Source of the DNA: Sporopachydermia quercuum
Taxonomy: Eukaryota
NCBI GenBank assembly: GCA_001599295.1
Contig: BCGN01000004.1
Coordinates: 1,613,676 to 1,677,675 of the forward strand
DNA length: 64,000 nt
Direction: 5' to 3'
The notes beneath the pieces are model-generated. The model was not told where the DNA came from. It saw only the letters and a list, made by a program, of their open reading frames with translations, and made no database searches. Within the stretch, counting starts at the first letter, position 1. Every line of letters begins with the position of its first letter. Of this stretch, positions 30,956-49,083 are shown one piece after another. Made by a program: the position numbers and the translations under genes.

Positions 30956-33070
30956 TCAGTAATGTTCAACAACATAATCATTCAAATCTTGAAATTCATA
31001 CAGGATAGAAGCATCTTGTTGATACTGTCCGTAATACCGCTCAATCTTAGCAGCAATGTTTTCACTATCGTATCCAAAATACTTATAAGCAGCAGCACCA
31101 GGCAAAGACTTACCGAAAGTTTTCATACTGAAACCTGCACTAGCATATCTTTCCCATCCATTAGCAGCATAAGCTTCAACAACAACTATAGGATGCTTTC
31201 CTCTGGGTAAGATAGTTCTCTTGTATTCATTGGATTGCTTTTCAAATAGTCTTTGACAGGGGAAACTAACGACACGAGNCTTCATACCCTTAGCATTCAA
31301 TTTTTCAGCTGCTTCAACAGCAAAGACCATTTCAGATCCAACACCAATGATGGTCAAATCAGCGTTTTCAACATCCTTGAAAACATAAGCACCATATTTA
31401 ACTAAATCTCTCTTAGAGAGTTCAGGGTATTGCTTTAAGTTCTGTCTGGAGAGAGACAAAATTGTAGTGGACTTCTTGGCATCAATAGCAACTTCCCAAG
31501 CACCGGTAGTTTCTTCAGAGTCGCAAGGTCTGATGTATAAGGTGTTGGGGAGAGATCTGTAGAAAGCGGCCAAAGCAATGGGTTGATGAGTAGGTCCATC
31601 TTCACCAGTTCCAATGGAGTCATGTGTGGCAACATGGATCACCTGTAGTTCTTGTAAAGCAGTCATTCGAACAGCAGGAGCAGCATAGATGTAAAACATA
31701 AAGAAAGATGAAGTAACAGGAATGAAAGTTCCTTCGTTGTAGGCAGCAATCCCGTTAGAAATAGCTGCCATAGCAAATTCCCTGATACCAAAGTGAATAT
31801 ACCTACCAGTATAATCGCCATTGATACCGCATTGCGTTTTAATAGCAGGATTCTGGAAGTCCTTCTTGTCTTTCCAGATCAAGTTAACTGATGGTGATAA
31901 ATCAGCAACACCAACCATGAAGTTGTTCACTTCCTTGGAAACGTTGTTGAAAACTAAACCTGAAGACTTTCTGGAAGCAGTGGGAGTTTTTGGCAAAGTG
32001 CCAGCGGCAGGTAAGAATTTTTTCCAGTCCTTAGGAAGTTCACCATTCACTCTTCTTTGGAAGTCAGCTGCTAATTCAGGGTAAGCATCAATATACTTAG
32101 CAATCAAATCAGCCCATTCTTGCTCGTACTGTTTACCCTTTTCCTTAACATCACTGAAGAACTCATAGAACTCGTCAGGGAGATAAAACTTAACTTCAGG
32201 GTCAAGCTTGAGGTTAATTTTCAACTGCTTGACCGAATCTTCGCCAAAGGCAGCTCCATGAGCAATGGCAAGACCTTGTTGAGGAGCACCAACACCAATG
32301 ATGGTATGGCAGTTAATCAAAGTGGGCTTGCCGTTTCCTTGCTTGGCCTTCAAGATAGCGTTGTAAATACCTTCAATATCAAAACAACCGTCCGCTATAT
32401 CAATTACATTCCAGTTGCAAGCTTCAAACTTAGCAGAAATGTTTTCAGTGTTAGTAAGATCGACAGATCCATCACAGGAGATCTGATTGTTATCGTATAA
32501 AACAACCAAATTATCTAATCCTAGATGGCCAGCAACCGAAATAGATTCTAATCCGACACCTTCTTGTAAGCAAGCATCACCAACCATACAGTAAATAGTG
32601 TTATCAACAACAGAAAACTCAGGCTTGTTATAAGTAGCAGCCAAATTTTTGGAAGCAATCGCCAGACCAACTGCATTGGCTATACCTTGACCCAAAGGTC
32701 CAGTTGTAACTTCGATTCCAGGATGTTCAATTTCCGGGTGACCTGGGCAGTAGGATTTCAATTCAGCTGAATGATAGGACTTCAACTGTTGCAATGTCAT
32801 ATGCTCGAAACCGAGTAAATGCCAGAATGCGTATTGGAAAAGACAAGCGTGGCCGTTAGAAAGGACAAATCTGTCTCTGTTGAAATAGTTAGGATTGCTT
32901 GGTGAGAATTTCATTGCATACTTGAATAAAGCAACACCAATGGCTGCCATACCCATAGCACCACCAGGGTGGCCACCATTATATTGCTGGACTAAGTCAG
33001 CAATAAGGCAGCGATACACTCTAAGAACGAAATCGTGTTTTTCAGGTGTTGCCAGGGCTTCAGTAGTCAT
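30956..33070 (-). CDS. Transketolase of the dihydroxyacetone synthase (formaldehyde transketolase)-like clade, no PTS1
   Basis: GGHPGGAMGM, FNRDRFVLSNGHACLFQY, PGHPE...EVTTGPLGQG, ThDP motif GDACLQEG...YDNN, THDSIGTGEDGPTHQP; DAS-type segments QTxCG..GDYTGRYI and ILYEFQDL. ATG 33070 has the best context; an in-frame ATG also lies at 33103. Confidence 0.92.
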   Translation of the reverse strand: MTTEALATPEKHDFVLRVYRCLIADLVQQYNGGHPGGAMGMAAIGVALFKYAMKFSPSNPNYFNRDRFVLSNGHACLFQYAFWHLLGFEHMTLQQLKSYHSAELKSYCPGHPEIEHPGIEVTTGPLGQGIANAVGLAIASKNLAATYNKPEFSVVDNTIYCMVGDACLQEGVGLESISVAGHLGLDNLVVLYDNNQISCDGSVDLTNTENISAKFEACNWNVIDIADGCFDIEGIYNAILKAKQGNGKPTLINCHTIIGVGAPQQGLAIAHGAAFGEDSVKQLKINLKLDPEVKFYLPDEFYEFFSDVKEKGKQYEQEWADLIAKYIDAYPELAADFQRRVNGELPKDWKKFLPAAGTLPKTPTASRKSSGLVFNNVSKEVNNFMVGVADLSPSVNLIWKDKKDFQNPAIKTQCGINGDYTGRYIHFGIREFAMAAISNGIAAYNEGTFIPVTSSFFMFYIYAAPAVRMTALQELQVIHVATHDSIGTGEDGPTHQPIALAAFYRSLPNTLYIRPCDSEETTGAWEVAIDAKKSTTILSLSRQNLKQYPELSKRDLVKYGAYVFKDVENADLTIIGVGSEMVFAVEAAEKLNAKGMKXRVVSFPCQRLFEKQSNEYKRTILPRGKHPIVVVEAYAANGWERYASAGFSMKTFGKSLPGAAAYKYFGYDSENIAAKIERYYGQYQQDASILYEFQDLNDYVVEHY

Positions 33071-33715
33071 TTTTACTTTTTTGTATGCTGGTTCTATTGT
33101 CATTAGGATGAACTCCACTTAAGATGAACTTCTCATACAATGAGGAAAAAAAAATACAAGAAAGATACAAATGACGCTTCTTCTCCAGGATAGAAAATCT
33201 GTTATCAGGAATACCAAAAGATTTTATATTTTCACCATGCATACTATCCAAGCACGTAGTTGGAAGGTAGTTTCTTTTCTATATATATAACTTGTACATC
33301 TTTGAAGCAAAAAATAGGATCATAGGTAAGATTTTGCCTTGTCATAAGGAGCAGTATTTCAATCTCTGACAGAGAAACAAAAGAGAAATCGAGCCGATAG
33401 AAGGAAAGTGTGAAAAGAAAAAGTTCAGTTTACCGCTCCTAATTCTAAAAGACGACTAATAATATTTTATATAGTTTGGCTGACAGATGGGTAATCAATT
33501 TCAGGTTCTAAAATTTCTCCTTTTTGGTTGTTTGTATGGATGGCGATGGGGAATAGTTATAACATTATAGTTGGATGATAGGTAAAGAGCAATACCGTTT
33601 CCAGCAAAATAGCCTGAAAGATAGGTCCAGCCGAAGATTCTTTTGATCATTTGAAGCATTTACCATTTCAGATGCGAGAGATTTTTCATACTTTGGTTTG
33701 AATAGCATAATAATA

Positions 33716-33728
33716 CCCCGGAAAAAAT
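33716..33728. promoter_or_regulatory. Mig1/CreA-type glucose-repression site in the transketolase promoter
   Basis: CCCCGG followed by AAAAAAT (reverse of the AT-box + SYGGGG consensus). Confidence 0.5.
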
Positions 33729-35619
33729 AGTTTAAGGTTTTGCTACTGGAGATTTACCAGCTAAAGGTTTGACATGTTTGTCGGTTCCTTACCCTAAGAT
33801 CAATAATTACCCGTTAGTTGGGGTAAAGAACTTAGAAAGTTTAAAATATATTCCCGTTAAGTAGCCCAATTTGGACTTGTCGCTCTCAACTGGCTTAAAC
33901 AATAATTTACATATGAACCTTAATATCAATGACGGTAAGAGCTTCGAGTGCTCAATACTACCTACCGTGGTGGTTCCAACTACTTCTACCACCGTTACCG
34001 CCGTAATATTTGAAATTCTGTGGAACGAAATGTGGAGATAGCAACCAGTGTTTCAAACCCAAGAGTTTACATGCATGATTGATGGGGTAGAATTATGGGG
34101 TTTAAGGAGAAGATAGAGTTCGTTGGAGCCAGTTTTGAAGTAGAAGCAAAGAGAAGGAAGAGTTATATAAGAGAATGGATATAAGAGTGAGCGGCAGTAT
34201 GAGTAATAAGACCATATAACGGATGATATATATAATGAGATATTCATTGAATGATGGATAAAAAAAGACTATTGTTTGATTTACGAGAATGTACTTGTAC
34301 ATACTTTATTAGTAAGTCTTTCCCTACAGATATTCGCTAGCTAATAGGTTGTTGCACTCAACTAGGATAGCAATAGTAGTGAACCGTCTGAAAGCTGTCA
34401 ATCACTGTTGACAATAATATTGAACTCTGGTAGGAAATAAAAATTTTGTAGTTTTTCTCAATTACTCATAAACTTGTCGGATTCAGCATGATTGTCGAGG
34501 TATGGATTCAGCTGCTCCCGTCATTTTGGTCCAAGACCTCAGGTTTTCGGGAACTTTGGACGCGACTACCTACAGTTGTTCGAACCAGGCTCCATGCATG
34601 TGGAAAGGATGAAAATGTATGAAGAGATACAAGTAAGAAACAGAGAAGAAAAGTAAAACCGAAAGCCAATAATATAAAATCTTGTCTTTCTATACATATA
34701 AGTTGGTTCACTTCTGAGAGGTATTCTTGAGCATGCCGAGAANGATACTTCAGCAGATACGTGCTATATAATTCATCATTGAGCAGACAAGTATGATATA
34801 CAATATACTATACATACTGTTACGGCATAAAAAAGAATTTATTGTTTATGATTAACTGTAAGTTATGTAGCTCATGAAATGACACCCATTCTATATATAT
34901 CATGCAGACTAACTAGCACTAGCAGAAATGATTCTTTCCTTGTCTGCTGTCGGTTGCATTACTTACTTCGCTTATTGAGGATTCTCTAAAATCCTTTCTT
35001 TTTCATTTATCGTATTTTGCTTGTTACCGACCTCATATAGAATCTTAATTAAAATNGAATTGAAATAGAATTAGCATAGCTGACACCATTGACGATTACT
35101 CTCTTGCTTTGTATAATGAACGCTAGCTCCTATTTCCCAACTTGCGAATCAAGTTAAGTACTCGTCTCGTTAATCGGTTATTTTTGTCCTCTNATGAACG
35201 ATGAACAATGAACAATAAATTGTGAATTATGAATTATGAACTAACTGATAGATAATGAGAAACCGTTTTAATGGATGTTTAATTAAATTTATATAAATAA
35301 AGCTTTAAATAATTGTTTTGGACTTTTATTTATTAATTTCTTTGCACTCTATGCATTTGATAGAGGCTCAGATTAGATGCTCTCAGGAAATGTATAACTA
35401 ACAATTAGAAGTAAGCTGTAGTGTAAGGAATTGTTTAGCATACCAGCGCAGAGAAAGGACATGAATGTGCTACGACTGTCTATTTCAAGAGAGAGAACAA
35501 AATAAGATAAAGAGAAATGTTTTGAATAATGAATATCATGGGACTAAAGGGTTTTGGTTGCCTTGAAATAGAAAGAAGAGTAGATGGGAATTAGCTCAAC
35601 TTGATGTATAGTGAATGCA

Positions 35620-36460
35620 GTTATCTATGCGCATCCCCACTACTAACACTAAGAGGTAGAGAGCTTTGATGGGAGAAGAGCAGTGGAAGGCATTACTGGA
35701 ATCATTGTTTTACCTGCTGGATATACCACTGAAAACCCCAAAATGGATGTCACCCTTTTATCAATGAGTACCAAACGTCGTTGTCATAAGTGGTCAATCA
35801 CTGCGCCACTATATGATTGAAAAGTATACCCCAAGTCAACAGATTCATAAGCTCAAGACAATATGTAAGAAAAATCTCAATGTGGATTCACATTATTCAA
35901 ATATTTCTACTTATACAGTCAATGACTCTTTAGATAGAAACGTTCATTATTCTCCTGGACATTAATCCTCCTGTTCATTTTACTGTGGAACAGGATGGAG
36001 AAATGATTGATACCCATATATTTTCTCGTGCAACTATTAGCATTCTTGTTTACATAGATACCCTTATTGTCATTTCNGCCAATTTCGAAAGCTATCTATC
36101 AAACTTGAAATTGCATTTGGCGATTTGGTAGAAATAAGGCTTCTACTGTTAATAGCACAAGAAATGTATTTCAGACCAAGATTGATATGGTAAGAGGATG
36201 CTGACTATGAACATAACGTGAACATCAACATTTGATATGCGATTCATGCAATACTATAAATTGAGCAGATGTTGAGAAAATAAAGAGCATGTCTAAGAGC
36301 TTTTCCTGCTGTTTCATTAGTATTCATCACAAGGAAATACTATCATTGAAACATATTGGTAGTATATCGATTACAATAATCTACATCAAGAGGCCCACTA
36401 ACTACAAGAGATTCACCAACATTTATGTATCTATTGACTCAACAATTATTTTGCTCAATA
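35620..36460 (+). mobile_element. Degenerate Ty3/gypsy RT to RNase H relic
   Basis: MGEEQWKALLESL..LL (35669-), KWMSPFY (cf. PWASPVF), VVNHCAT, NPPVHF, ILVYIDTLIVISANFESYLSNLKL...HKKC (YID at 36051-; cf. VYIDDIIIFS.TFEEHL...KKC), LRAF, RFTNIYVSIDST (cf. DF.KPF.V.TDAS). Confidence 0.72.
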
Positions 36461-36963
36461 TTTAAACTACCATTATATTCAGAGTGTTTCACCAGCTGGA
36501 TCCGTCTAAAAACAAAATTCATTAACATAAAATAATAGGCAATTAATTACAAGATGTCCTATTATCGATTATTGCAACTAACTATTGCTACTATTCACCA
36601 TACAAGCACCCCCAAACTTTTTTTTGCTTACATTAATGAAAATATGACCAACAACTAACACTGCACCTCAACTTCCCCAACTCGCAGAAATTCTTGTCAT
36701 GTCATTTCTATTCAACACAACAACTCTATTCTTATCCATTTCTTCTACCTCCTACAAATACATGATATGAAGTCATAAATCATATACATTACCATATATA
36801 TCATCGTACATATAATATCGAGTAATAACTATTACTCTACAAAAGTATCATCAATTTTTTTAAAAAATAAACTATAGATATGTCAACCGACCTTCGTTAT
36901 CATCATGAAAAGCATTAAAAACAGTAGTATCAGAACCCTTCGGGAAAATAAAATAATAAAAAA

Positions 36964-38586
36964 CTAGGCTTGCTTATCGTTACCAGAGACTTCAATACTA
37001 ACCTCAGAAAATGAAGTTGATGGCTTTTCAGGTAATATTTCACCGTGATGTTCAAGAATATCTTCATGTCTAGGCATTGATCTTTCGATCTTGACAACGT
37101 CCCAGGGAGTCTTGGGGTTTGATTGTTGGAAAACTTTGTCCATATCTTCCAAGGACCTGCCGGTGGTTTCAGGATAAAGAATGTAAACAACTGGGACAAT
37201 AGCCATGTTCAAAACAGCGAAAATGATATAAGTTCTGTAACCAATGGATTCAAAAGCAACAGGAGTAATCATGACAACCATGAAGTTGAAACTCCAGTTG
37301 GCAGCTGTAGAAATACCATTGATAGGAGCTCTGACCTCTAAAGGAGCAATTTCAGCAGGGTATAACCAGGGGATACCTAACCAACCAACGGCAAAGAAAC
37401 TGTTGAAAACGAATAAAGCAACAGCAGCAACAATTGGTGGTCCACTAACATGCTTGACTTCTGAAGCCCACATAGTGGTAGCTAAAACTACCATAGTTAA
37501 TGACATACCGAGAGCACAACTCAGCATAAGAGCTCTTCTACCATATCTTTCAATCAAAGGATAAGCAAGAATAGAAGCAAGGAAATACTCAGTACCATTA
37601 CAAGCAGCCAAAATTCTAGAGTTCAAAGGAGTCATACCAATGTATTGCTCATAGATGGTACCAGCATAGTAAGTAATTAAGTTGATACCAGATAATTGTT
37701 GCATGGCTTGAGTCCAGAAAGCAAGCATGGCTCTGTGGAAATGTTTGTTTTCGCCATTAGAAATAATGGACTTGAAATCAAAAAGCTTACCAGAGTCTTC
37801 CTTTTGAGATAAAGTTTCAACTTCGGCAATTTTTTGAAGAATAGCAGGATCATTAGGTTCAGCATCTTCCAAGATAGCAAAGATAACTTGAGCTTCATAA
37901 ACTCTCTTCTTCTTAATCAACCATCTAGGAGATTCAGGAGCAAAATAAAATAAAATTACAACAGCAATACAGAAAAAACATTGGAAGGCGATAGGGAATC
38001 TCCAGCCAACAGAGTTGTGGGGAACAAAGTAGAAACCAAAACCAATCCAATAAGAAAGCATGACACCGAGAATATTGAAAACACAAGCAAGCATCACAGC
38101 TTTACCTCTGTGGGAAGCTCTCGAACATTCAGACTGCCAAGTTGGGATTGTAGAGGTATTGAAACCATTTCCAAGACCAGAAATAACTCTACCAGTGATT
38201 AGTTGACCGAGAGAGAAAGACGAACATTGTAAGATAACACCAATGCACATAATGGAAGCACCACTCATAATCATTCTTCTCCTACCAAAAGTATCACCAT
38301 AAACCATACCGAATAATGCACCCATCATACATCCAATTTCGTAGATAGCAACGGTAACACCTTGAATAGTCGCAGTGTTGTCGGAGGTATTNCGACTAGT
38401 ATCAATTCTAGGGAAGGTTTCTCTGAAATTTGGCAATGTCAATAAGCTTCCCATGACACCTTGAGCGTAACCAAAAAGAAGAAAACCAACACCAGCAACA
38501 CATGCTGTATAAAGTTGAAGCCTTTTACCTCTAACTCCGAAGAACTGAGTTACTTCGGTATTATCCCTATCTAAGAAACCAACCAT
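36964..38586 (-). CDS. MFS sugar porter, STL1-like (glycerol/polyol:H+ symporter subfamily)
   Basis: GFLLFGYAQGVMG, GDTFGRRR, GRVISGLGNG.NTSTIPTWQSEC, PESPRWL, MQQLSGINLITYY, PWLYPAEI, YPETTGRSLEDMD. Confidence 0.93.
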   Translation of the reverse strand: MVGFLDRDNTEVTQFFGVRGKRLQLYTACVAGVGFLLFGYAQGVMGSLLTLPNFRETFPRIDTSXNTSDNTATIQGVTVAIYEIGCMMGALFGMVYGDTFGRRRMIMSGASIMCIGVILQCSSFSLGQLITGRVISGLGNGFNTSTIPTWQSECSRASHRGKAVMLACVFNILGVMLSYWIGFGFYFVPHNSVGWRFPIAFQCFFCIAVVILFYFAPESPRWLIKKKRVYEAQVIFAILEDAEPNDPAILQKIAEVETLSQKEDSGKLFDFKSIISNGENKHFHRAMLAFWTQAMQQLSGINLITYYAGTIYEQYIGMTPLNSRILAACNGTEYFLASILAYPLIERYGRRALMLSCALGMSLTMVVLATTMWASEVKHVSGPPIVAAVALFVFNSFFAVGWLGIPWLYPAEIAPLEVRAPINGISTAANWSFNFMVVMITPVAFESIGYRTYIIFAVLNMAIVPVVYILYPETTGRSLEDMDKVFQQSNPKTPWDVVKIERSMPRHEDILEHHGEILPEKPSTSFSEVSIEVSGNDKQA

Positions 38587-39251
38587 TTTGAAAGTTATAT
38601 GTTATGTGATCTAGTTTGTGATGTTGTATATATGTTGTATATAGAAGATCTAAGGTAAAGTAAGAGAGATGCAGTATAATTCAACATTTCTTCGATGCAA
38701 ACATTTGGTGGGATAGCTGATGCTTTTATACTTAATGTTCATCGAAAAAGGAAAATCAATTTAGAATATATAATGATAGTGATTGAGTATAAACAGTACA
38801 GAGAATTGAAAAAATAGGAAATACAAATGATTTCAGTAAAGTTCTCTGCTTTTGTCTAAATTAAAAGAATAAGAATGCGATAATAATAAAATTAAGATTT
38901 CTCCACAGTTTACTAATTATTCAGGGACGTTCAAATAATCGAAAGATTGGTTATAAGACCGTAAAAAGCCTCAATTATGTGAGTATTTAAAGTATGTCAT
39001 GATGAAAAACGTAGATAGAGCCACGAAATGTATCTTTTTTTAAGTTTATAGTTAAGGTTTAGTAAATGCTGAAAGTCTTAGTATGGGGCTAGTTGTTTCA
39101 GAGTTTAATATTAAGGAGTTCAGTGGGTTGAATGGATGGAAACGTGAGGAAAGCCGCCCAAGCAAAATTAGAATTACAATTTACCCCGGACAGAATGAAA
39201 CTCAAATTAGAGTTAATATGAGTTCTTATCACTTTGCCCCGAGAGTATGTT

Positions 39252-39264
39252 ATTTAACCTGGGG
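39252..39264. promoter_or_regulatory. Mig1/CreA-type site in the transporter promoter
   Basis: ATTTAAC-CTGGGG; a further CCCCGG at 39184-39189. Confidence 0.45.
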
Positions 39265-40129
39265 TTTAGGGATGCTCAAGCCGTTCAATGCGAAAAAATG
39301 AACTTGAATTTTGCCCTTGAAAATGCAGTGCTCAGAACAAATTGGGTGATTTAATTTCTGGAGTTATGTCATCGAGGAATTTCTTCTAGGGTGTTGGGGA
39401 AATCATTCAGCTTATGTAGTACATCTTTAGATTCTTCTAATGGTAGGCTTTCCGGACGTGGGTTTTCGAAGTATTGCAATATGCGGGANGGTCAGAAGAT
39501 CTGGGAAAAGGCACTAGAACTTCAAGATTTCATCAGAAGAGTTTCTTACAAAGGGTACGACAGCTGTAATTCAGGAGGCAAAATTGTTGTTGATCCAGTA
39601 AATTTTTTATATTCTTGATATTCGGATGATGTGTGTATAAATGGAGTAACTATGCACAACATTACGATTAACTATATGATTANAAAAGAAGTCCAGACAA
39701 AAGGTAAACCTCCGAAGGTTTGTTCAGCACATGTACGGAAAANGTTTTAAGGTTTATCTATGACATATCTATTGGAAACTTAATTTCTAGATTGGATTGC
39801 TCCCCATTGTCTTCATCGCCATACTGAGTTAGAGAATTGTAAGCATCGTAAACATTGGAAATATATTTTATGAGAGGAAGAACAAGGAGGGTGGGAGGAG
39901 ATTATTACTAGTTAGCGTATAATCTAAAAAGTAGATACATGTTTATGAATTTCTTTGCTCACCAAATTATGTTGATATATTCAATATAAGAACTAGGTAT
40001 GTAACGCAATACAGATCTATGATAGCCACACCTTTGTCTATCAGAAGACTGTTAAGAATGCAGAACAAACAGGTAAGATATAGAACACTAGAACTTTTAG
40101 TCAAAGTATCATTTTAACAATCACTTTCC

Positions 40130-42480
40130 GGTTTTCCTTTGAAAAAGTTAAATAGGTTGAAATTTAATTGGAGTTAAAAGTCTTTCGCAAAAGTGGGGAT
40201 CATCATCGGTATATCAACTTATTTTTTCTTCTGCTTTCCTTTTTCTTTATAATTCTGTAACTCTATGCTAATTCGTTAGGAGTCAATTACTCTAGCCTCG
40301 CTTAGCAAAACACTTATTTCAGATAGATTTCCAATTGTAAAGATTATGGGCTAATAGAGAAAATGTAGCTACAAGAATCTCCTACTGTTATTACATACAA
40401 AGTTACTGTCTTTCCTGAAGTAAGTACAAGTTCCATACATAATCTGATTATAGTAGTAAGTTACAATGTAATCAATAAGAATCAGTATATCGTCTAATAG
40501 ATACTTGCATTTCACCAACACCAATTAGTGGTCAGTCAATCGTATCATTATCATAGAAGCAAAATGCTTTCACAGATATATGGTTTATGGTTTAATATTA
40601 ATTGCTTAATTAATATATTGTTACCGATCTATTGGAAAATTGGAGAGTTTATATAAACATTTTCAAAGATATAGCATTCGAATTCCAAACCGGCTTGGAG
40701 CTTGTGAAAGATGAGGAGTTGATATCTTTATAAATCATGTATTATCCTATGATTATTCAGTAGGTCAGAACATAAAATGCACCATGCATTCAAAGCAAAT
40801 ATGAAAAATAAAAATAAAAATAAAAAATATTGAAGAAATCAACCAAAAAGGTTTGTTTTAATGGTATATTTATGGTAGATATATCAGACAACACTTATAC
40901 AATTTTAAGTAATGAGAGCAGGCGTCTATTAGTTGGCGCTGGTGCTGGTATTTCATACTCATATTATATGATATTCCCAACTACTCGACCTGTTATTAAA
41001 GTAAAGAGATTATAAATCTCTATTAAAGACAGATTTAAGGGTTACCTCCCCATAGAGCAAGTTTCAATAAATTGCTCAATAAGGACTTTTGTTTGACATC
41101 TTTTGAAAAGTATAATCACATCTTTTTCTTCATTCTACTTCCATTTTGATTATTTTCTTTTTTCAGTACAAGCAATTGTTTATTTTTTTTAATTGAGCAT
41201 AAAACATATCTGATGGTGATTTTACTCGGAACTATTAGAAAACTGGAAACTTGTTTGTAAATCAAAAGATCACTCAAAGTTAACCATTGAATGATGAGTT
41301 ACGAGAAAAATGATCACAAAGACTGTAGCTCTGTTTGAAAAATAAATACAAATATTGTTTCTTTTCTACCAAAGAGTTAACTATAAAAATGTAGGTGAGG
41401 TTTGATGAATCTTTTATTGGTTCTCAGAGGATAGTTGTTAGTTGATTGGGTTACCATGTGTGATTCCTTGTATTTAGAGAGTTACAATTATGATTTATTT
41501 TCCTCAGTTATAAGTTATGATTGGAAATTTCGATACTCAAGAAAAAAACAACTAATGATAGCTAATAGTCTGAAGAAAGACGCATTGAATAACTTCATGT
41601 CAAGGACTCCTTTTCTATGAGCAAGACTTACAGTAGGCACTGAAAAATTTCTTTCTAACGAGGTATTCTCCGTCTCTGAAAAATGGATAATTGACAGTAA
41701 AATGAGCTTATTAGTGTCTTTTCATGATATTTACTTAAATATCAGCTATGTTGTTCAACCAAATATACATCAGTCAAGATGAGTGTACATTTGAATCTGA
41801 AACTTCAATTTCATAAAGGTGTCTTTTAGATGACAAGACGGACTTCTAGCTGATGAACAGCTATGGCAATATTATTATTATACAACTTTTCAACAACTTC
41901 TTGAGTTTATAGATGTTCGTCAAAATCCTCTCATTCTCATGAATCTTCTCCGCTATTCATTTTAAATTCAGTTGTAAATGCTCACTACTTGCGCCAATAT
42001 AAAGTTGACTCTTTCGATAGTGAAATAAAGTTAAAATAAGAAAACTTTCCACTTCCAAATAAGGAACAATGTACGTTAAAGAAACTAAGTTAATGTTTCA
42101 TTATTGGACAACGTTATAATGAAATGAGATTAAGCTTTCGGACATTTTAATCCTCCTGGAGCTTAACTTTAAGTAAACCAGATAATATTTTAAAGTTTCC
42201 CCTGGTTACAGATCCAAATCAGGAACCAAAACTATAAACTTTCGACGAATTGTCCTCCAGGCTATTTCGACACAATAGGAAATGAAAAACCGATATTAGT
42301 ATAATGTACCTCCCCAAAAGTGAGAGATCATCTTATGCTCATTAGACAATAAAAATCTTTCTCTTTAGTTTATTTAAAATTAGAACAAGAGACTGAAACA
42401 ACTAGACATAACTCTTGGCTATGAGTGAATCACCTCAAACTTGTGGTCAAATGGAAACCACCTCAGGTATTTGATTTCAT
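40130..42480 (+). mobile_element. Near-complete but heavily decayed Ty3/gypsy pol (RT, RNase H, integrase) between the transporter and the SDR
   Basis: GVNYSSL/SKTLISDRFPIVKI (40279-), HFQRY, VDIFINHVLSY (YxDD position about 40727), STKEL (KEL at 41371), SYDWKFRYSRKKQLMIANSL (41513-; cf. YDF.I.Y..GK.N..ADAL), FPLPNK...LS*CFIIG (42046-), LPKS, SPQTCGQME (42430-; cf. HPQTDGQTE); domain order and most spacings fit Ty3/gypsy. Confidence 0.75.
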
Positions 42481-43298
42481 AAGTCAGATATCACTAGCGT
42501 AGATCTACTTGAATGTTGGCCATTTAAGGTTATCCATCTCTAAAGTTGAAGAACTGAGATTTCTTAACTAAGTTTTATTGACAGCTATTCATGCAAGGAT
42601 CATATAGCAATTGTAAGACAGGCCACCCTTATCGTTTTCAGCAGGAAAGAATAGCTAGCATATACAAGCAGAGGCAGCATTTCTCCATAAGCCAAGCCAT
42701 GGAAATGAAAGCTCATCAAGAGAGACGTCCTGCAAAAATAAGGTTTTGTAGTTATTATAGTAGGTTGGGTACTAGTTGAGTAATGTTTCTCATCCTACCT
42801 AACTTGCTTAAGCTGTGCTTCATCTCATAATTAGCAAATTTCATCTACAAGTCAAAAAAAAAAACATGAATATAGTATTGTATAGTGCTTATCAAAACAG
42901 AACTAACTACATAGAAATTCTAATGTTGAGTTGTGTTTTCTTTTATTTATCCTAAAAGCTCAATTTCCCCACTGTTTACTTTCTTTTTTCTGGGCAAAGA
43001 AGTATTAAACATTTTCCCCATGATTCTCCCCAGTCTTCAACCAAAACTTCATTAATCCAGATTTGTTTATAGAATTATCTCTTATTAGTGCAGCTTGATA
43101 TTTTCATTATCCTATTGAAAACTTACATCCTCGAAAGCTTCTTAATCATCTAACTTTCCCCTATATATCCTTGCAATGTTCATTTAGAGACATTGCGAAA
43201 TACCTTGAACAGCTTAAAGTTTGCTNAACCACGCGTAAACTGACGTTTAGGTCAGTTTGCCGTATAGTATTCTTTCTCATTTACTCCAATTTGGAAGC

Positions 43299-43310
43299 AA
43301 ATTTCTGGGG
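43299..43310. promoter_or_regulatory. Mig1/CreA-type site in the SDR promoter
   Basis: AAATTT-CTGGGG; further CCCCAC (42967) and CCCCAG (43028). Confidence 0.5.
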
Positions 43311-44036
43311 TAAAAACAAGAAATAACGTAATAACCTCACCAAGCCATCGATCAAGTTTCTGGTATCCTCTAGAACATAGCCTGTTCAACAGTACCCTCA
43401 TTTGTTTTCCTCTACTATTTGTATTTCAGAACACTTACTTTTGTTTCGATCTTTCTAGAGATAAAGACCAATTTATCCGAAGCATCTGTCATCTAAATTC
43501 TGACTTCCAATTAATCCGAATCGAACTTACAATTACTGCCCCATACTATTTGCTATTTAACAGTGTGGAGAAACCAAACCTTAGTTTGATTAATTAGTAC
43601 TTAAAGTTTAAATTCAAAAACTTTAAATCTCTGTATGGAAACCTCTCCAGGTTTTACTCTCATTATTAGCCTAGAAATTACTTTACCCTCAGGCCGGTAA
43701 TTAACTAATAGGCTATGTTATTAGAATTGGGGGAGAGCTATTTTGAGCTATATTACTTACATCAAAATCGTAGACTAAATGTTGTGAAGGCTGAACTTCA
43801 CTTGTTATTATTCATTTTGTTAGTATTCTCCTTCGTTGCTATTCTCCCTCTTTTATTCAATGCCATTGTGTTTGACCTTGTCTGTAATATATAAATCTCT
43901 CAGTGTCGATTTCAACCCTTAATTGCCATTTCCCTTTTTGCTTTGGATTTCCTCCCTCTTTGTTTCCATCTTTCGTTGATTATCTGAATATCGCTATAGC
44001 GCATCACCAATAGCACATATCATAAGATCCTTCCTG

Positions 44037-44900
44037 ATGGTTAAAAATTTTGAAGACAACGTCGCAGAGACTTCGTACATTCTCAATGATCCGAGTCCTT
44101 TACCTAAACCTGATCCCAAGCTTGCTGAGAATGTCTTGGACCTTTTCTCCTTGAAAGGTAAGATTGCAGTGGTAACTGGAGCTGGTCAAGGTATTGGTTA
44201 CTCAGTTATTGAAGCATACGCTCAAGCAGGTGCCGATGTCGCCCTTTGGGATCTTTATGATGCTTCAGAAACTGCTAAAAAACTAGCTGCCAAGTACGGT
44301 GTTAAAGCAATTGCTTATGCTTGTGATGTTACCGACTCTGAAGCTGTTGCACTAACCGTCAAACAAATTGAAGCAGATTTCGGCACCATTGATGTTTTCG
44401 TTGCCAACGCTGGTATCAACATTAACATTGGTTCCGTTGTTGACGAAGAATACAAAGATGCCAACTGGAAGAAGGTTTTAGATATAAACATTAACGGTGT
44501 TTTCTACTGTGCTCGTAATGTTGGTAAGATATTCAAGAAGAAGAACGGTGGTTCTTTCATAATCACTGGTTCCATGTCTGGTTTCATTATCAACACTCCT
44601 GTCCACCAAGCTGCATACAACACTTCCAAGGCTGCTGTTGTCCATATGGCAAAGTCTCTTGCTATTGAGTTTGTTGGTTTTAACGCTAGAGTCAATTCCA
44701 TTTCTCCTGGTTATGTCAACTCTGGCATAAATGATCATTTACCTCATTCTACCAGACAAAGGTGGTGGAGTACTATTCCCATGGGTCGTGAAGGTTTAAC
44801 AAAGGAGTTAGTTGGTGCTTACTTATACCTTGCTACTGACGCTTCCTCCTATACAACTGGTGCTGACATCAGAATTGATGGTGGTTTCACTATCTGCTAA
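44037..44900 (+). CDS. Short-chain dehydrogenase/reductase, Sou1/mannitol-dehydrogenase/L-xylulose-reductase-like
   Basis: PLPKPDPKLAENVLDLFSLKGK, TGAGQGIG, DVFVANAG, SMSG, YNTSK catalytic motif, ARVNSISPGY, YLYLATDASSYTTG.DIRIDGG. Confidence 0.92.
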   Translation: MVKNFEDNVAETSYILNDPSPLPKPDPKLAENVLDLFSLKGKIAVVTGAGQGIGYSVIEAYAQAGADVALWDLYDASETAKKLAAKYGVKAIAYACDVTDSEAVALTVKQIEADFGTIDVFVANAGININIGSVVDEEYKDANWKKVLDININGVFYCARNVGKIFKKKNGGSFIITGSMSGFIINTPVHQAAYNTSKAAVVHMAKSLAIEFVGFNARVNSISPGYVNSGINDHLPHSTRQRWWSTIPMGREGLTKELVGAYLYLATDASSYTTGADIRIDGGFTIC

Positions 44901-45924
44901 TCAGACTGGTAATAGTAAATAAATCCTGTTGGGAGAAAGTAATGTTATTTTTTATGGATGAAACAATGAAATCATGCTTGACAGTTTAAACTAGTGTGAG
45001 TTTTTGGTAGCTGATTTAACTGTTAATAGATTGATAATGATAATACAATCTGTAATATGGTAATGATAATGAGAGATGAATTATTGCAATTGTTGTGCCA
45101 GTAACGTAACTTACAGTAATCTGTTAAGTGTAATTAATGTAAGAGGTTTTTGCAATTGCTCGTNTAAAATTACTTGAATTGGTAATTAATGATAAGCATT
45201 AATTATTGCAATCATTTTACGTGGTCTTGTTGGGTGACAAGAACGAGTACGATTAATTGATGCATTATTAATTGCAGTATAACAGTATAATTATTACTCT
45301 GCTGGGTTACTATTTCTATTTCTACGATTGTTTCTGAATTACTGCCGTTTCCTTAATTCATGTTTGTTGGAATAACATATAATAGTTTTTATGCTTGGGA
45401 TTTTCAAGACTGGAGACGAGAGATATCTGCCCGGTCAAAGACTGATCCGAATGATGTCAGTTCTTAACAATTGTTTGGCTGGAAGATATGACGAGAATAC
45501 GGTGAATACTGAATAAACCAAAACATACTGCGTCATTAGATAAACATTTAAAACTAAAGTGTTTCCCGTAATTAATTCGGTACTTGAAAAAGTGTTCACA
45601 AAGAATCTATAGTACATCTTATAGTTATAATAATAGTTTGATCTCTCCAATACTCGTAGTAACAGTAATANATTGTTTGATAAAAGTGTGCAAGGATCAA
45701 TAAACGAAACGTCCTTGAAATCAGTAACTGTAAGTATCATATAGACAATTGACAATAATAGGAAGATAAGCAAATAACATTAGCCGTTGTAGAAAGAGAT
45801 CGGACAGAATAGCTAGTAATACTATTGTCAGTTGAATCCTACCAGACGATGATCTCCATTTGATAACCTTTACCTAACTTAGCCGTTCTCCATTTCCTCT
45901 TCCTATTCTATTCTATCACCATTC

Positions 45925-48900
45925 CTAATATATGCCATTCCAATAATTAATCAAATCCCTGCAACGGTAGCTCGTTGGCCATCCAACCTCAGACTCAATA
46001 TTACTCAACAAATTCAACAGCACAGTATGCTCATTTCTACTGCTAAGCAATCTTCCTGCTATCCATAATGGCTGTAATGAATTCGTATATGCTCCATGGT
46101 CATTACTAGTACATCCGATACCCACTATTCTTCTTGCATGCCAAACTGGCGATTTATTCTGAGATTTCTCCTTAATAGCACTATTTGTTCTGCTACCTTC
46201 ATCTCGATCCAATGACGATAGTTTCAGCAATCGTGGTTTATTCTCTAGCATTAAAATAACTGCCATATGATACATCTGATTGCCAGACACAGCTTTAGAA
46301 TTGGTGAAATAAACCTTTGGAAAAGGAAAATCCCCATCTTGCCATTCAAATAGTGGTTTCATTGGCACTGGGCAATCATTCTTCCAGTCATCCAATTCTT
46401 GCCATAAGTCAACCCATTCATTCTCGAAGTTCACACTGTGATCATCACTGGATATCAAATTGATAACTCTTGAGCATAAAAACACGATATAATTTGCATA
46501 CATATCCCAGTTTTCTGGTCCTGACGCTGCTAAAAACAATTTTTTCGACGTTTTAACATCTGGGTAACCTAATGGGAGCCAATCCCTGCAAGGAATAATA
46601 GTTGTTTGTTCTCCTATCACAGCAGCGCAAACATCCATTCGAATAAAACACCAGAAAATGCTTCTTTCTAAAGGAGGACTAAACCCGTTAATAGAATATC
46701 GCTTAAATAGCACGGCACATCCCTCTAGATGTCTTCTCCAATTCTTGGGCTTACTACTCATCATTTCAAATAGGCATAGCATGACACAGGCTGCAAGCAT
46801 GCTACAATCAACATCCGATTGATTATATTGGGGAACCAAATGCTGTAACGCAGTATGATACAACTGCAATGATTTGTCCTTAGGATAATTACTGTGCGTA
46901 CCCTCATATTGTCTAGACGACAATGCTAGCATTGCATAATGCAATGCCGGACATGTCAAGGCCATAAAAGGTACCTGGAAGCCAAAGTGTCTTTCTAAAC
47001 CAAACATATCCAGCCAGTTTGAGACTTCATTCACGTAGTTTTTAAGCAGCATTAATTCTTCGTTTTTGCTTAATTTTGGAGACTCGGCATTAGCAAAATC
47101 GTCAGATTTGAAGTATTCTTGAAACACATCTTCGTGAGGAATATCAGAAGGTATTGTCAGCACTGGTGAGCCTTTATTTTGCGTGGTAGACGCATTCAAA
47201 TACATAAAATCACGTAAAGTATCAGGGAATTCGTAGAAGTTCTCAGCAGCTTCGTTTTCCTGGAAACATTCAAGAAATCCGTTATAATCAAGCACAATTG
47301 CATTGTTAGAATTGGTAAAATCAGATGCTAGTGAATCGTATAAACTTGCAGCCTGAATAGATGTTCTGGGAAGAGTAGAGTTTGCAGAGTTAGTTATGCT
47401 ACCTCTTGGGGTTGTTGAAGGTAATGGCGAGAATCTAGAATTAGCAACTAGATACTGTTCGTTAGGAGTAGCNCCAGCGGGATTCTGCAGAGATATGCCT
47501 TGGGGAGTGGCTAGAGGTGTTGCCTGGGCTGCCGGAGCTGCTTGAGATTGCTGCTGCATATGTTGATGGTTGATATTTGATTGCCCTGTTGTTGTGGGTA
47601 GGTTCAATTTATTATAGAAACTCTGTTGTTCAGATTCTAATTTCCGTGTTTTCCATTCGAGATTCTGCCGCGTTAATTGGAACTTTCCTGGTGATAGCAG
47701 TTCATAATTGCTCTGGCTTTTTTCTAGATTGAAGTCTTTCTCAGTAGCAATAGGTGTGAAACTGCCGGCTGCAGCATTGGCAGTATTAGCAGTACTCGCG
47801 GCACTTGTATCAACAGGAGTTGGAGCTGGATTATTAAGATGAGAATTTTGAATGTTTTGTTGATATATACCTGTAATTGGATCATCGAACCCGTCAGTGG
47901 AATTAGAAGTACTGTTTTTCATACCGTTAGGTAGAAGACTAGGATGAAAAAGATGACTACTAACATGCAAGATACTATTTGTACTTAGTTTTCCATTCAG
48001 GCTGATTCTCCCATTTTCGGTTCCAACTTCGGATTTGATAATATCGATATCAATGTTTGGTTTCTTTTGATACTTATTGAAAGCTGATAGCTCTTGAGCC
48101 GCAGTGATAAGTATTCTGGAATCAAGACTTCTAGATCCTTTCTCTGATCCTAAACCTGGCCCTGGAGGGAACGTCTGTACGCCGTTAAATGGGATGTCTG
48201 TCCTATTTAAAGGCAGAAGATGCGAATGCTGATGTGTTTCGCCTTGCGGTAGCTCCTGAGGTTTATTAGAAAGGGTGCTTGATGATAGAATACTGTTGAT
48301 ACTAGTATTAGCTGTAGTATTGGTGCTGTTGGTGCTATTGGTACTACTACTGCCACTACTACTGTTGCCATTTAGATCGCCATTCAGGTTACCGTTTCCT
48401 ACTGGTGCCGATACTAAATTGTGTACCGATGGTTTAAATGGCTTTTTCAGTTCACTTTCATTTGAAGAAATCACAGTTTCAAGCTTAGATCCGTTAATCG
48501 AAGTAGTTACAAACACTGGTTCATTTGCACCTGGTGGCCAGTTACATTGGAGGTTATTAACCGTGCAGTAGCCGCATTTCAGCTCGCCAGAGTTGTTCAT
48601 CATTTTAACCTCATCGCATTTTCTATGCTTTTTCCGACATGTGAAGCATCCCGTGCGTACTCTTTTAGATGAGCGTAGCTTTTTATTGCTTGGAGTTGAA
48701 GATGAATCGTTTGAATTTGCAGTTGTAGTTGTAGCTGTAGTTGTTGATGATGCTGTTGCTGTAGCTGTGTTACCGTTCGAATTAGGCTCAGCATCCATGT
48801 TGTATTCAGAGAGTCTTTTCAATCCTTTCTCGGGCGAGGCTACCGTATCAGTGGCCCTGATGGTGGAAGAGTAGGAAGTTGTACTGGAGCTAGGAACTGA

Positions 48901-49083
48901 GTTGTTAGGATTTCTACTAGAATTATCACTGATATTATTGCTGATACTGCTGCTACTGTTGATACCATTACTACTGATCGCAACAGCTGTGTTTACACCA
49001 CTAGTGCTGCTAGTAGTACTGATCGGCGGTTGATTGAACAGGTCGTGATTACAAGCTGTAACCAAAGCTGGACTTGATTCCAT
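45925..49083 (-). CDS. Zn(II)2Cys6 transcription factor with C-terminal Fungal_trans_2-type domain
   Basis: RTGCFTCRKKHRKCDE...CGYCTVNNLQC; C-terminal LLKNYVNEVSNWLDMF...ALHYAMLALSSRQ...WRRHLEG...FWCFIRMD...LQPLWIAGR. Confidence 0.9.
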   Translation of the reverse strand: MESSPALVTACNHDLFNQPPISTTSSTSGVNTAVAISSNGINSSSSISNNISDNSSRNPNNSVPSSSTTSYSSTIRATDTVASPEKGLKRLSEYNMDAEPNSNGNTATATASSTTTATTTTANSNDSSSTPSNKKLRSSKRVRTGCFTCRKKHRKCDEVKMMNNSGELKCGYCTVNNLQCNWPPGANEPVFVTTSINGSKLETVISSNESELKKPFKPSVHNLVSAPVGNGNLNGDLNGNSSSGSSSTNSTNSTNTTANTSINSILSSSTLSNKPQELPQGETHQHSHLLPLNRTDIPFNGVQTFPPGPGLGSEKGSRSLDSRILITAAQELSAFNKYQKKPNIDIDIIKSEVGTENGRISLNGKLSTNSILHVSSHLFHPSLLPNGMKNSTSNSTDGFDDPITGIYQQNIQNSHLNNPAPTPVDTSAASTANTANAAAGSFTPIATEKDFNLEKSQSNYELLSPGKFQLTRQNLEWKTRKLESEQQSFYNKLNLPTTTGQSNINHQHMQQQSQAAPAAQATPLATPQGISLQNPAXATPNEQYLVANSRFSPLPSTTPRGSITNSANSTLPRTSIQAASLYDSLASDFTNSNNAIVLDYNGFLECFQENEAAENFYEFPDTLRDFMYLNASTTQNKGSPVLTIPSDIPHEDVFQEYFKSDDFANAESPKLSKNEELMLLKNYVNEVSNWLDMFGLERHFGFQVPFMALTCPALHYAMLALSSRQYEGTHSNYPKDKSLQLYHTALQHLVPQYNQSDVDCSMLAACVMLCLFEMMSSKPKNWRRHLEGCAVLFKRYSINGFSPPLERSIFWCFIRMDVCAAVIGEQTTIIPCRDWLPLGYPDVKTSKKLFLAASGPENWDMYANYIVFLCSRVINLISSDDHSVNFENEWVDLWQELDDWKNDCPVPMKPLFEWQDGDFPFPKVYFTNSKAVSGNQMYHMAVILMLENKPRLLKLSSLDRDEGSRTNSAIKEKSQNKSPVWHARRIVGIGCTSNDHGAYTNSLQPLWIAGRLLSSRNEHTVLLNLLSNIESEVGWPTSYRCRDLINYWNGIY

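Follow-up and report, generated by a model that had tools for sequence, protein, structure and literature searches.

A regulator-led gene cluster with a DAS-like transketolase in Sporopachydermia quercuum: a candidate route for a plant-derived branched pentose

Four consecutive genes in a 64,000-nucleotide stretch of Sporopachydermia quercuum DNA (the window) encode a transketolase resembling dihydroxyacetone synthase (DAS), a sugar porter, a short-chain dehydrogenase (SDR) and a Zn2Cys6 transcription factor, and these gene families are linked in other fungi. According to our leading reading, which we hold tentatively and at somewhat less than even probability, the genes may belong to a glucose-repressed, regulator-led, oxido-reductive cluster that works without a sugar kinase and would serve the use of a branched pentose from plants, with D-apiose or its polyol apiitol as the most likely substrate.

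The gene of the transketolase, a member of the clade of DAS-like proteins (DLPs) by Pfam and relatives (30956..33103, minus strand, 715 aa), is separated by a 3860-bp spacer holding its promoter (33104..36963, with SYGGRG sites and a CCCCGGA motif) from the gene of an MFS transporter of the sugar-porter (SP) family (36964..38586, minus strand, 540 aa, Pfam Sugar_tr). A divergent promoter region of 5450 bp with an enrichment of Mig1/CreA-type sites (38587..44036) is common to the porter and to the Sou1/SCR-derived SDR (44037..44900, plus strand, 287 aa), which was identified by Pfam, PDB alignment and trees. The Zn2Cys6 factor with a C-terminal Fungal_trans_2 domain (Pfam PF11951) follows at 45925..49083 (minus strand, 1052 aa). 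The four ORFs are intact and concordant with Pfam. As originally predicted, they are consecutive, and porter and SDR are divergently oriented, here with 5450 bp between them; the only other ORFs of at least 100 aa between the four genes are two shadow ORFs. The two long spacers are the longest among the 20 gaps of the window, and neither 33104..36963 nor 38587..44036 holds a coding relic of a kinase, an isomerase or another cluster gene, in agreement with the predicted absence of these enzymes. Searches of the locus for tRNAs and against Rfam gave no match. Two DNA runs each have one contig that spans positions 39800-49500 without differences; these runs may be the window's own source, so that this agreement is not independent.

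The regulator, a probable pathway-specific activator, has 111 relatives at E<=1e-10. A DLP transketolase is adjacent to or near a regulator relative in all six named pairs, which were pre-selected. More generally, a search with the regulator gave 80 fungal loci, of which 16 include a DAS-like transketolase (10 of 21 among loci of at least 15 kb), and the transketolases in those 16 loci are 52-63% identical to the window enzyme vs 39-44% to TKL1 of the same genome as the window. All four families occur in six loci (L026, L051, L061/L096, L062 and L065), representing about three lineages. The cluster had been predicted to be catabolic, conserved and led by its regulator, and a lack of linkage in other species was to count against this; linkage is in fact widespread among fungal loci. 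In C. boidinii, the SDR adjoins the regulator in four assemblies and the transketolase is 15-17 genes away from this pair; in Kuraishia capsulata, C. arabinofermentans and Ogataea the linkage is broken. Since the only sugar kinase in the scanned fungal loci is DAK, the suggestion that the route needs no kinase and passes through a free ketose is likewise consistent with the data.

The label 'DAS-like' given to the transketolase is right, and more exactly the enzyme is a DLP, a DAS-like protein without PTS1: it is a second transketolase beside TKL1 (46% identity), is nearer to DAS-annotated proteins and lacks PTS1, as judged in a comparison set without true DAS sequences. It is 61-69% identical to at least 120 fungal relatives among the matches listed, with a value of 65% for BAJ11495, the 'DAS-like protein' of O. 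methanolica, and a PTS1-like C-terminus is found neither in the window protein nor in any of 120 relatives. In databases many of these relatives are named 'dihydroxyacetone synthase', and an A. niger network gives such genes EC 2.2.1.3 by annotation (PMC6231085). A methanol-type DAS is ruled against by the missing PTS1 and by the genome assembly, where no alcohol oxidase of the GMC family (PF00732) was matched in a search whose control matched in 5 of 14 genomes. Nakagawa et al. are said to have found in 2010 that the DAS-like protein of O. methanolica fails to complement das1 and shows no induction by methanol. Our literature search returned no paper assigning DLP a function, and a review of S. 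stipitis clusters (Jeffries 2009) mentions neither transketolase nor dihydroxyacetone.

Alignment to 1GPU (yeast Tkl1 numbering) shows His30, His69, His103, Asp157, Asn187 and His263, together with Arg359, Ser386, Glu418, His469, Asp477, His481 and Arg528, to be present and conserved in relatives, with catalytic and phosphate-binding residues intact. Special chemistry had been expected on the acceptor side, with small aldehydes; the intact phosphate-binding residues point to the donor side, making it more likely that the acceptor of the predicted enzyme is phosphorylated and its donor is not. Moreover, smaller residues occupy the DLP active site at yeast-TKL1 positions A33, P34 and I191, which may be compatible with a bulkier donor. 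A single-sequence AlphaFold model of the transketolase was unusable (pLDDT 34.5).

The SDR is about 57% identical to Candida albicans Sou1 and the carbonyl reductase SCR (PDB 7DLM, 3CTM) and has the same fold and catalytic residues (Ser179, Tyr194 and Lys198), but after beta-strand 2 an NAD(H)-type Asp72 replaces their NADPH-type Tyr-Asn-Ser, and the substrate loops differ. The C. boidinii orthologue also has Asp72, as do those mould cluster SDRs that were examined; a separate NADPH-type Sou1 is kept on contig C8 of the genome. Identity to the C. boidinii SDR adjoining the regulator orthologue reaches 75%, and trees show that the SDR is not orthologous to those of the mould clusters. One Escherichia apiose SDR is sister (0.95) to a clade of fungal cluster SDRs and the window SDR; in pairwise comparison with the apiose SDR of E. 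coli (39% identical), the window SDR is no closer than other paralogues of the genome (42% and 38%). Sou1/ArdH-type SDRs oxidise a C2 hydroxyl of the hand opposite to that of D-apiitol, and therefore the SDR fits the oxidation step proposed below poorly.

The porter scores above the cut-off of TIGR00879. One cluster member among its relatives is named 'putative Sugar transporter STL1', but the description as 'STL1-like' is loose, with best representatives only 46% identical. The porter is 36% identical over its full length to that of the L026 cluster, and its identity to paralogues in its own genome (35%) is about the same as that to porters of other clusters (about 36%). No porter orthologue with genomic context was identified.

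Upstream Mig1/CreA-type sites, also part of the original prediction, stand for most of the locus. The divergent region 38587-44036 contains 13 SYGGRG sites vs 4.2 expected, a count reached in 0 of 200 shuffles, and the upstream 1 kb is enriched for the transketolase (5 vs 1.4 expected, p ~0.025) and the porter (4 vs 1.2, p ~0.03), but not significantly for the SDR (3 vs 1.2). Four of 13 non-cluster promoters counted have four or three such sites. The CCCCGGA motif lies ~620 bp upstream of the transketolase ATG and ~610 bp upstream of the porter; it was not found before the SDR, the genes on contig C3, the aldo-keto reductase (AKR) on contig C7 or DAK. Motif discovery in 14 transketolase upstream regions gave no convincing common regulator site and no enrichment of a CGG dyad, and the Euf1 motifs ATGCA and CGGAT are not enriched at the locus.

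The wider neighbourhood gives hints of a substrate. Homologous fungal clusters carry a xylose-reductase-like AKR in 8 loci (6 distinct), an L-arabinitol-dehydrogenase (LAD)-like enzyme in 8 (5 distinct), GH3 in 7, a rhamnosidase-like glycoside hydrolase in 2 and Sde182 in 4 (only 2 distinct). This gene content would imply that an aldose is set free from a glycoside; instead of the erythrulose or xylulose once proposed as the free ketose, it favours a glycoside-derived aldose, with D-apiose as the best candidate. In Paramyrothecium, one gene model fuses DAK to the regulator adjoining the transketolase, which is expected if dihydroxyacetone is released. A sub-group of fungal loci with an L-threonate-dehydrogenase-like gene (LtnD-like; 323 bits in NF043037 vs a cut-off of 350) and DAK, the transketolase not being in view, fits C4 chemistry equally. 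In the genome of the window, contig C3 bears a satellite cluster with a paralogous regulator, a porter and a LAD-like dehydrogenase whose best PDB match is L-arabinitol 4-dehydrogenase (3M6I), and contig C7 an extra xylose-reductase-like AKR. The single GH3 sits in a different cluster, and neither Sde182 nor the apiosidase family GH140 is present in this genome.

An independent test of the apiose link was provided by 80 bacterial loci fetched with a fungal Sde182 protein. Eight of them hold homologues of the growth-validated D-apiose genes of E. coli SE15, with identities of 40-66% (29-33% for DUF2291). Three loci have aplK, aptA and aptB together, 4 have aplK, 6 have the binding protein and 4 have DUF2291. 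In the Sde182 tree, the eight loci are scattered over six or more separate positions. The bacterial sequence scanned was 1.21 Mb, or ~0.3 genome-equivalents at an assumed 4.5 Mb, and the D-apiose pathway is known from only 5.62% of screened genomes (PMC13001218); by the 5-of-10-gene criterion of that study, only L183 comes near. In the other 72 loci no apiose gene appears up to a distance of 8 kb, and members of the Sde182 family also adjoin arabinofuranosidase, GH31, rhamnosidase and sulfatase genes. AP_endonuc_2 genes in L124 and L146, considered as apiose isomerases, are L-rhamnose isomerases and were left uncounted; L124 stays in the count on account of its binding protein and permease. 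In a fold search, the Sde182-linked binding protein matched RHE_PF00037 (4RY0) with Z 42.9, rmsd 1.5 and 69% identity over 287 aligned residues. We take 5IBQ to be a structure holding apiose and 3KTC to be Pectobacterium ApsI. The ESM Atlas returned DUF1593 clusters only. Sde_0182 is described as a Ca2+-retaining domain of nucleoside-hydrolase fold, inactive on nucleosides and thought to bind furanoses (PMC8910321); as apiose is a furanose, this was counted for the apiose reading. Escherichia clusters of strains grown on D-apiose lack the isomerase, and two SDRs are thought to replace it (PMC13001218), a precedent for oxido-reductive entry.

As we infer the apiose route, the porter would import the sugar, an aldose reductase would convert D-apiose to apiitol, and an NAD+-linked dehydrogenase would oxidise C2 of apiitol to free apulose. 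The cytosolic DAS-like transketolase would then transfer the C1-C2 unit of apulose to glyceraldehyde-3-phosphate or another aldose phosphate acceptor, giving xylulose-5-phosphate and dihydroxyacetone, which the housekeeping DAK, present once in the genome and on another contig among housekeeping genes, would turn into DHAP. The pathway would be split, with transketolase, porter, NAD-type SDR and regulator in the window and the rest on C3 and C7; the SDR may oxidise apiitol or, instead of the AKR, carry out an NADH-linked reduction.

Several other readings were weighed against the same data. Erythritol (through the SDR) or L-threitol (through the LAD-like enzyme, once an AKR has reduced L-threose derived from the breakdown of ascorbate) could give free L-erythrulose, to be split by transketolase into xylulose-5-phosphate and glycolaldehyde, in place of EYK1, EYI1 and EYI2 in yeasts without RpiB. 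L-erythrulose is a good transketolase donor, and the oxidation hand of Sou1-type SDRs yields it from erythritol. RpiB is missing from the genome, which has a single TPI and a single DAK, and one fungal sub-group has an LtnD-like gene and DAK together with the regulator. We nevertheless consider this tetritol route, the main rival of the apiose reading, unlikely: among 150 fungal segments scanned, no aldehyde dehydrogenase or glycolate gene for glycolaldehyde removal was found; genes for GH3, rhamnosidase-like enzymes and Sde182 turn up repeatedly, although tetroses do not occur in glycosidic linkage; the regulator is probably not EUF1, given no Yarrowia protein among its 111 relatives in a word-limited search; and the link of Sde182 to apiose genes is left unexplained. 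This link, like DAK, is also unaccounted for if another rare aldose or polyol (a pentitol, a heptitol such as volemitol giving sedoheptulose, hamamelose, or an epimerisation of the L-arabinose type through AKR, LAD and an SDR resembling L-xylulose reductase) supplies a free D-threo ketose to the transketolase. The fungal L-arabinose pathway uses the same families (AKR, LAD-like and Sou1/ArdH-like enzymes), the C3 dehydrogenase resembles 3M6I, and SDR and LAD-like enzyme occur together in L023/L024 and in the window genome. Pentose routes, however, finish with xylulokinase, and a complete xylose cluster that includes a kinase exists separately in this genome, so that pentose would need no dedicated transketolase; such a substrate is doubtful, and slightly the less probable of these two readings.

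The names of the relatives, EC 2.2.1.3 in the A. niger network (PMC6231085), the STL1-like porter and the DAK link would suit a true dihydroxyacetone synthase fixing formaldehyde, for example from pectin methanol, beside a glycerol porter and a glycerol/dihydroxyacetone dehydrogenase. Such C1/glycerol housekeeping is improbable given the absence of PTS1 from the window protein and 120 relatives, the missing alcohol oxidase match, a named relative that is the O. methanolica DAS-like protein, and an aldose reductase and glycosidases that it does not explain. Least probable, and by our estimate very much so, is that regulator and transketolase alone are an ancient unit with porter and SDR as unrelated neighbours in this yeast. 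The porter's similar identities to cluster porters and own paralogues, the non-orthology of the mould SDRs and the distant C. boidinii transketolase would agree with it, but SDR and regulator adjoin in four C. boidinii assemblies, in distant fungi NAD-type SDRs and related porters are again neighbours of regulator and transketolase, and the common divergent promoter is enriched in carbon-repression sites.

Carter et al. are said to have described in 2018 a bacterial D-apiose transketolase route with ApsI, AplK and AptAB. It corresponds to MetaCyc PWY-8089, as cited in PMC13001218. The proposed likeness is conversion of the aldose to apulose and transketolase cleavage to xylulose-5-phosphate and a C3 ketose; the Escherichia variant has an entry thought oxido-reductive, by two SDRs in place of ApsI, and the accessory family Sde182 connects the bacterial route with the fungal clusters. 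The bacterial route has an FGGY kinase, an isomerase and an ABC importer, whereas the window cluster lacks all three; its split AptAB contrasts with the full-length fungal DLP (only 28-34% identity to AptA), and its product is DHAP, whereas the fungal proposal has an unphosphorylated donor and the product dihydroxyacetone. Neither aplK nor aptB was matched in the 80 fungal loci or the window spacers. The window cluster is at most one that works like the bacterial route, not a member of it.

With methylotrophic-yeast DAS (EC 2.2.1.3) and O. methanolica DLP, the window enzyme shares a transketolase branch by relatives' annotation. Like BAJ11495 it has no PTS1; unlike DAS it has no peroxisomal signal, its genome gives no alcohol oxidase match, and it sits in a sugar cluster. 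Fungal oxido-reductive pentose pathways run through XyrA/LarA, LadA, LxrA/Lxr3/Alx1, XdhA and XkiA. The same families appear in the homologous clusters (XR-like AKR, LAD-like dehydrogenase, Sou1/ArdH-like SDR), but those pathways end in a ketose kinase, whereas window-type clusters have a dedicated transketolase, their own conserved regulator and clustered genes. The Yarrowia lipolytica erythritol cluster (EUF1, EYD1, EYK1, EYI1, EYI2) likewise pairs a Zn2Cys6 regulator with a polyol/ketose SDR (PMC10935855, PMC5992420). It had been offered as a precedent; as a homologous one it finds no support, with no Yarrowia protein among the 111 regulator relatives in a word-limited search and a genome without RpiB and with one DAK and one TPI. 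The Yarrowia cluster has a DAK-type kinase, RpiB and a second TPI, and the window cluster has a transketolase and a porter instead. Orthology of the regulator to EUF1 was dropped on that same search and on domain layout (EUF1 951 aa, domains ~20-65 and 279-560; window regulator 1052 aa, laid out otherwise).

D-apiose is a sugar of plant walls and glycosides, and our literature search returned no paper on its use by fungi. A transketolase that bears the annotation 'dihydroxyacetone synthase' but has no demonstrated role is found in many non-methylotrophic fungi; with a conserved regulator and a named substrate, both this role and fungal apiose use become testable. With a little less confidence than in the cluster's own substrate, we suggest that a eukaryotic D-apiose pathway may be widespread among fungi, with DLP cleaving free apulose, Sde182/DUF1593 proteins acting as feeding apiofuranosidases or apiose-binding modules, and the formaldehyde-fixing DAS of methylotrophic yeasts having arisen from this DLP enzyme. 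If true, a common annotation would be corrected, DUF1593/Sde182 would be given a function, and a natural transketolase acting on a free branched ketose would become useful in biocatalysis and pectin valorisation. It would also suggest an origin for the DAS of methylotrophic yeasts.

The four neighbouring genes of the original prediction, in G000:C4:1613676-1677675 of a 16.4-Mb genome in 15 contigs, were all found intact and in place by ORF and Pfam checks: a transketolase (30956-33103, minus strand), a sugar porter (36964-38586, minus), an SDR (44037-44900, plus) and a Zn2Cys6/PF11951 regulator (45925-49083, minus). They are flanked by an M28 peptidase gene and a gene for a protein without a Pfam match. 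Cluster spacers of 3860 and 5450 bp are the two longest among the window's 20, and no gene relics, tRNA or Rfam RNA were detected in them. Mig1/CreA-type sites, noted upstream in the original prediction, are enriched in the divergent porter–SDR spacer (SYGGRG 13 times versus 4.2 expected, reached in 0 of 200 shuffles) and only modestly so upstream of transketolase and porter. An identical 9-mer, in which a CGG triplet overlaps a Mig1-like GC box, occurs in the same orientation ~610-620 bp upstream of transketolase and porter (33714-33722 and 39182-39190), and was not found ahead of the other candidate genes. The window also contains 61 scattered single N, ~1 per kb and some within ORFs, which are probably masked heterozygous positions or withheld bases, and two long ORFs of 573 and 950 aa (50257-51978 and 60178-63030) without any Pfam match.

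Two transketolase matches exist in the genome, the window's and canonical TKL1, with 46% identity between them. The best 120 listed relatives of the window enzyme are 61-69% identical to it; those with names are from yeasts and filamentous ascomycetes, and the Ogataea methanolica 'DAS-like protein' (DLP) BAJ11495 is among them. Because a PTS1-like C-terminus is absent from the window enzyme and all 120 listed relatives, and no match to the alcohol oxidase family occurs in the genome, the label 'DAS-like' holds in a narrower form, and the enzyme is assigned by sequence to the cytosolic DLP group, not to methanol DAS. Nakagawa et al. reportedly found in 2010 that das1 was not complemented by DLP. 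Every ThDP, catalytic and phosphate-binding residue of yeast Tkl1 is kept in the alignment, and clade-typical changes close to the active site (yeast numbering: A33->G, P34->A, I191->C, N387->V, V474->T) may widen the pocket.

Conserved linkage in other species was borne out by named genome pairs and by part of a set of 80 metagenome loci. Nineteen of 111 regulator matches were paired by eye with apparently the same genome among the 120 listed transketolase relatives, and six pairs were looked up. The two genes are adjacent in four (Limtongia smithiae, Candida jaroonii, Colletotrichum navitas and Paramyrothecium foliicola), 3 apart in Cadophora and 8 apart in Lipomyces orientalis. Their locus tags are 3 apart in Coleophoma crateriformis. 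Kuraishia capsulata, C. arabinofermentans and Ogataea lack the linkage. An independent regulator search of metagenome contigs gave 80 fungal loci, some of them duplicates or close kin; 16 contain a DLP-type transketolase, among them 10 of the 21 loci of at least 15 kb, many others being too short to tell, and all four genes occur together in 6 of the 80. In a tree, the regulator relatives form one family spanning Lipomycetales, other yeasts and moulds. The Yarrowia erythritol cluster was dropped as a homologous precedent, since no Yarrowia protein was among the 111 regulator matches, its regulator EUF1 has another domain layout (PMC5624910), RpiB was not found in the genome, and a single DAK and a single TPI are encoded. 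On the same evidence, the window cluster is not the erythritol cluster of PMC10935855 and PMC5992420.

Partner genes were surveyed with Pfam in 150 of the 347 segments extracted, and with tblastn over all 80 fungal loci. A xylose-reductase-like aldose reductase (AKR) recurs in 6 distinct loci, an L-arabinitol-dehydrogenase (LAD)-like Zn dehydrogenase in 5, GH3 in 7, a rhamnosidase-like hydrolase in 2 and Sde182/DUF1593 in 2 distinct loci; an NAD-type SDR of a subfamily other than the window's also recurs. AKR and SDR never occur together in the surveyed loci, and the LAD-like enzyme is found with either. No isomerase, and no sugar kinase other than DAK, was seen in them. In a sub-group of regulator loci (L041, L043, L047, L070 and L094) the transketolase is mostly out of view. 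These loci combine a pair of SDRs and a DAK-like gene with one resembling L-threonate dehydrogenase (NF043037, scoring below cut-off), and are possibly a sugar-acid branch.

Related genes lie elsewhere in this genome. A satellite on contig C3 (G000:C3:43156-50370; L214:4157-8271, L215:1292-2371) comprises a porter, a paralogous regulator and a LAD-like dehydrogenase. This regulator is 44.6% identical to the window's over 287 aligned residues and groups with transketolase-linked yeast regulators, and the dehydrogenase is 51-54% identical to those of DLP clusters in other fungi; the satellite is probably the other half of the window cluster's pathway. Close to one end of contig C7 lies a second AKR of the xylose-reductase-like type (G000:C7:512-1471; L206:509-1480). 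It is 63% identical to the cluster AKR of fungal locus L019 and neighbours a P450 and another Zn2Cys6/PF11951 gene. Elsewhere, G000:C7:797000-816000 (L208, L209) holds a Zn polyol dehydrogenase, a transaldolase-like gene, two porters, GH3 and a Zn2Cys6 gene, and is a predicted second kinase-free sugar cluster. A complete xylose cluster (G000:C1:1241000-1265000; L217-L219) has two porters, AKR, xylitol dehydrogenase, FGGY kinase and a transcription factor, and a subtelomeric sulfur-scavenging array (G000:C3:2000-41000; L210-L214) has several TauD dioxygenases, alkyl sulfatase, sulfatase and MFS permeases.

To test a D-apiose reading of the fungal clusters outside fungi, bacterial relatives were fetched with a fungal cluster's Sde182 gene (the 80 best of >562) and compared with the D-apiose cluster ECSF_RS02670-02715 of E. 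coli SE15, a cluster type reported with growth on D-apiose (PMC13001218). Apiose-gene homologues occur in 8 of these 80 loci: aplK in 4 (44-48%), aptA with aptB in 3 (42-51%), binding protein in 6 (40-47%), permease in 5 (51-58%) and DUF2291 in 4 (29-33%), and one SDR is 66% identical to its E. coli SE15 counterpart. Chance would give at most ~0.3 apiose operons in the 1.21 Mb scanned even with one per genome, and such operons are reported in 5.62% of screened genomes (PMC13001218). Sde182/DUF1593 lies within or beside D-apiose-type operons at L137:3177-12790, L183:607-16232, L199:7794-17067 and L176:66-9470, which suggests that DUF1593 may act on apiofuranosides. In L137, Sde182, isomerase, split transketolase, FGGY kinase, DUF2291 and ABC ATPase follow in one orientation. 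PDB matches were 3KTC for its isomerase (E 3e-101) and 5IBQ/4RY0 for the binding protein of L183 (E 6e-124), structures which we take to have apiose roles; L176 and L183 carry a fucose-isomerase-fold gene at the expected place of the apiose isomerase. On the Sde182 tree the eight linked loci are scattered over at least 6 places. The two fungal proteins cluster together (0.999), beside a group that includes two of the apiose-linked bacterial loci (0.92). The other 72 loci have no nearby apiose gene, and the family also adjoins other glycosidases in bacteria. Sde_0182 is described as a nucleoside-hydrolase fold interacting with furanose, without nucleosidase activity (PMC8910321). In the Escherichia apiose cluster two SDRs probably take over from the isomerase, which is missing, and one of them is sister (0.95) to a clade that unites the SDRs of the fungal clusters with ArdH-like and Sou1-like enzymes.

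Aldose reductase, C2 dehydrogenase, transketolase, DAK and glycosidases without a kinase led us to D-apiose, which we put forward tentatively, at slightly under an even chance, as the substrate; a kinase-free route through a free ketose is considerably more probable. Apiitol would be oxidised at C2 to apulose, which transketolase would cleave with release of dihydroxyacetone. The apiose reading is two steps removed: bacterial apiose genes are tied to Sde182, which is tied to two fungal clusters, and these in turn to the one in the window.

The window SDR bears on this choice. It aligns with the NADPH-dependent Sou1/SCR enzymes, but its beta-strand 2 ends in the Asp that marks NAD(H) use, and a separate NADPH-type Sou1 is encoded elsewhere in the genome. 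In four assemblies its nearest relative, from Candida boidinii (75% identical), has an accession next to that of the regulator orthologue (OWB59527/26, OWB58124/23, OWB72861/62, GME87637/38); the C. boidinii DLP is separated from them by 15-17 genes within one contig. The neighbouring porter is of the sugar-porter family, and its predicted likeness to STL1 is only loose. The stereo-preference of Sou1-type SDRs suits conversion of erythritol to L-erythrulose better than that of D-apiitol to apulose, so the substrate may instead be a tetritol, or the SDR may perform the reductase step. For apiitol, the LAD-like enzyme on C3 fits better than the window SDR.

Neither Sde182 nor GH140 was found in this genome, and therefore the yeast would rely on apiose freed by others. 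PMC13753588 presents apiose pathways as bacterial, with little work on them since 2018. Full-text searches, with subscription journals outside their coverage, listed no paper on this cluster, DLP function or fungal apiose catabolism. We regard this as a real and conserved catabolic cluster that has the orphan DLP transketolase at its core and appears not to have been described before.
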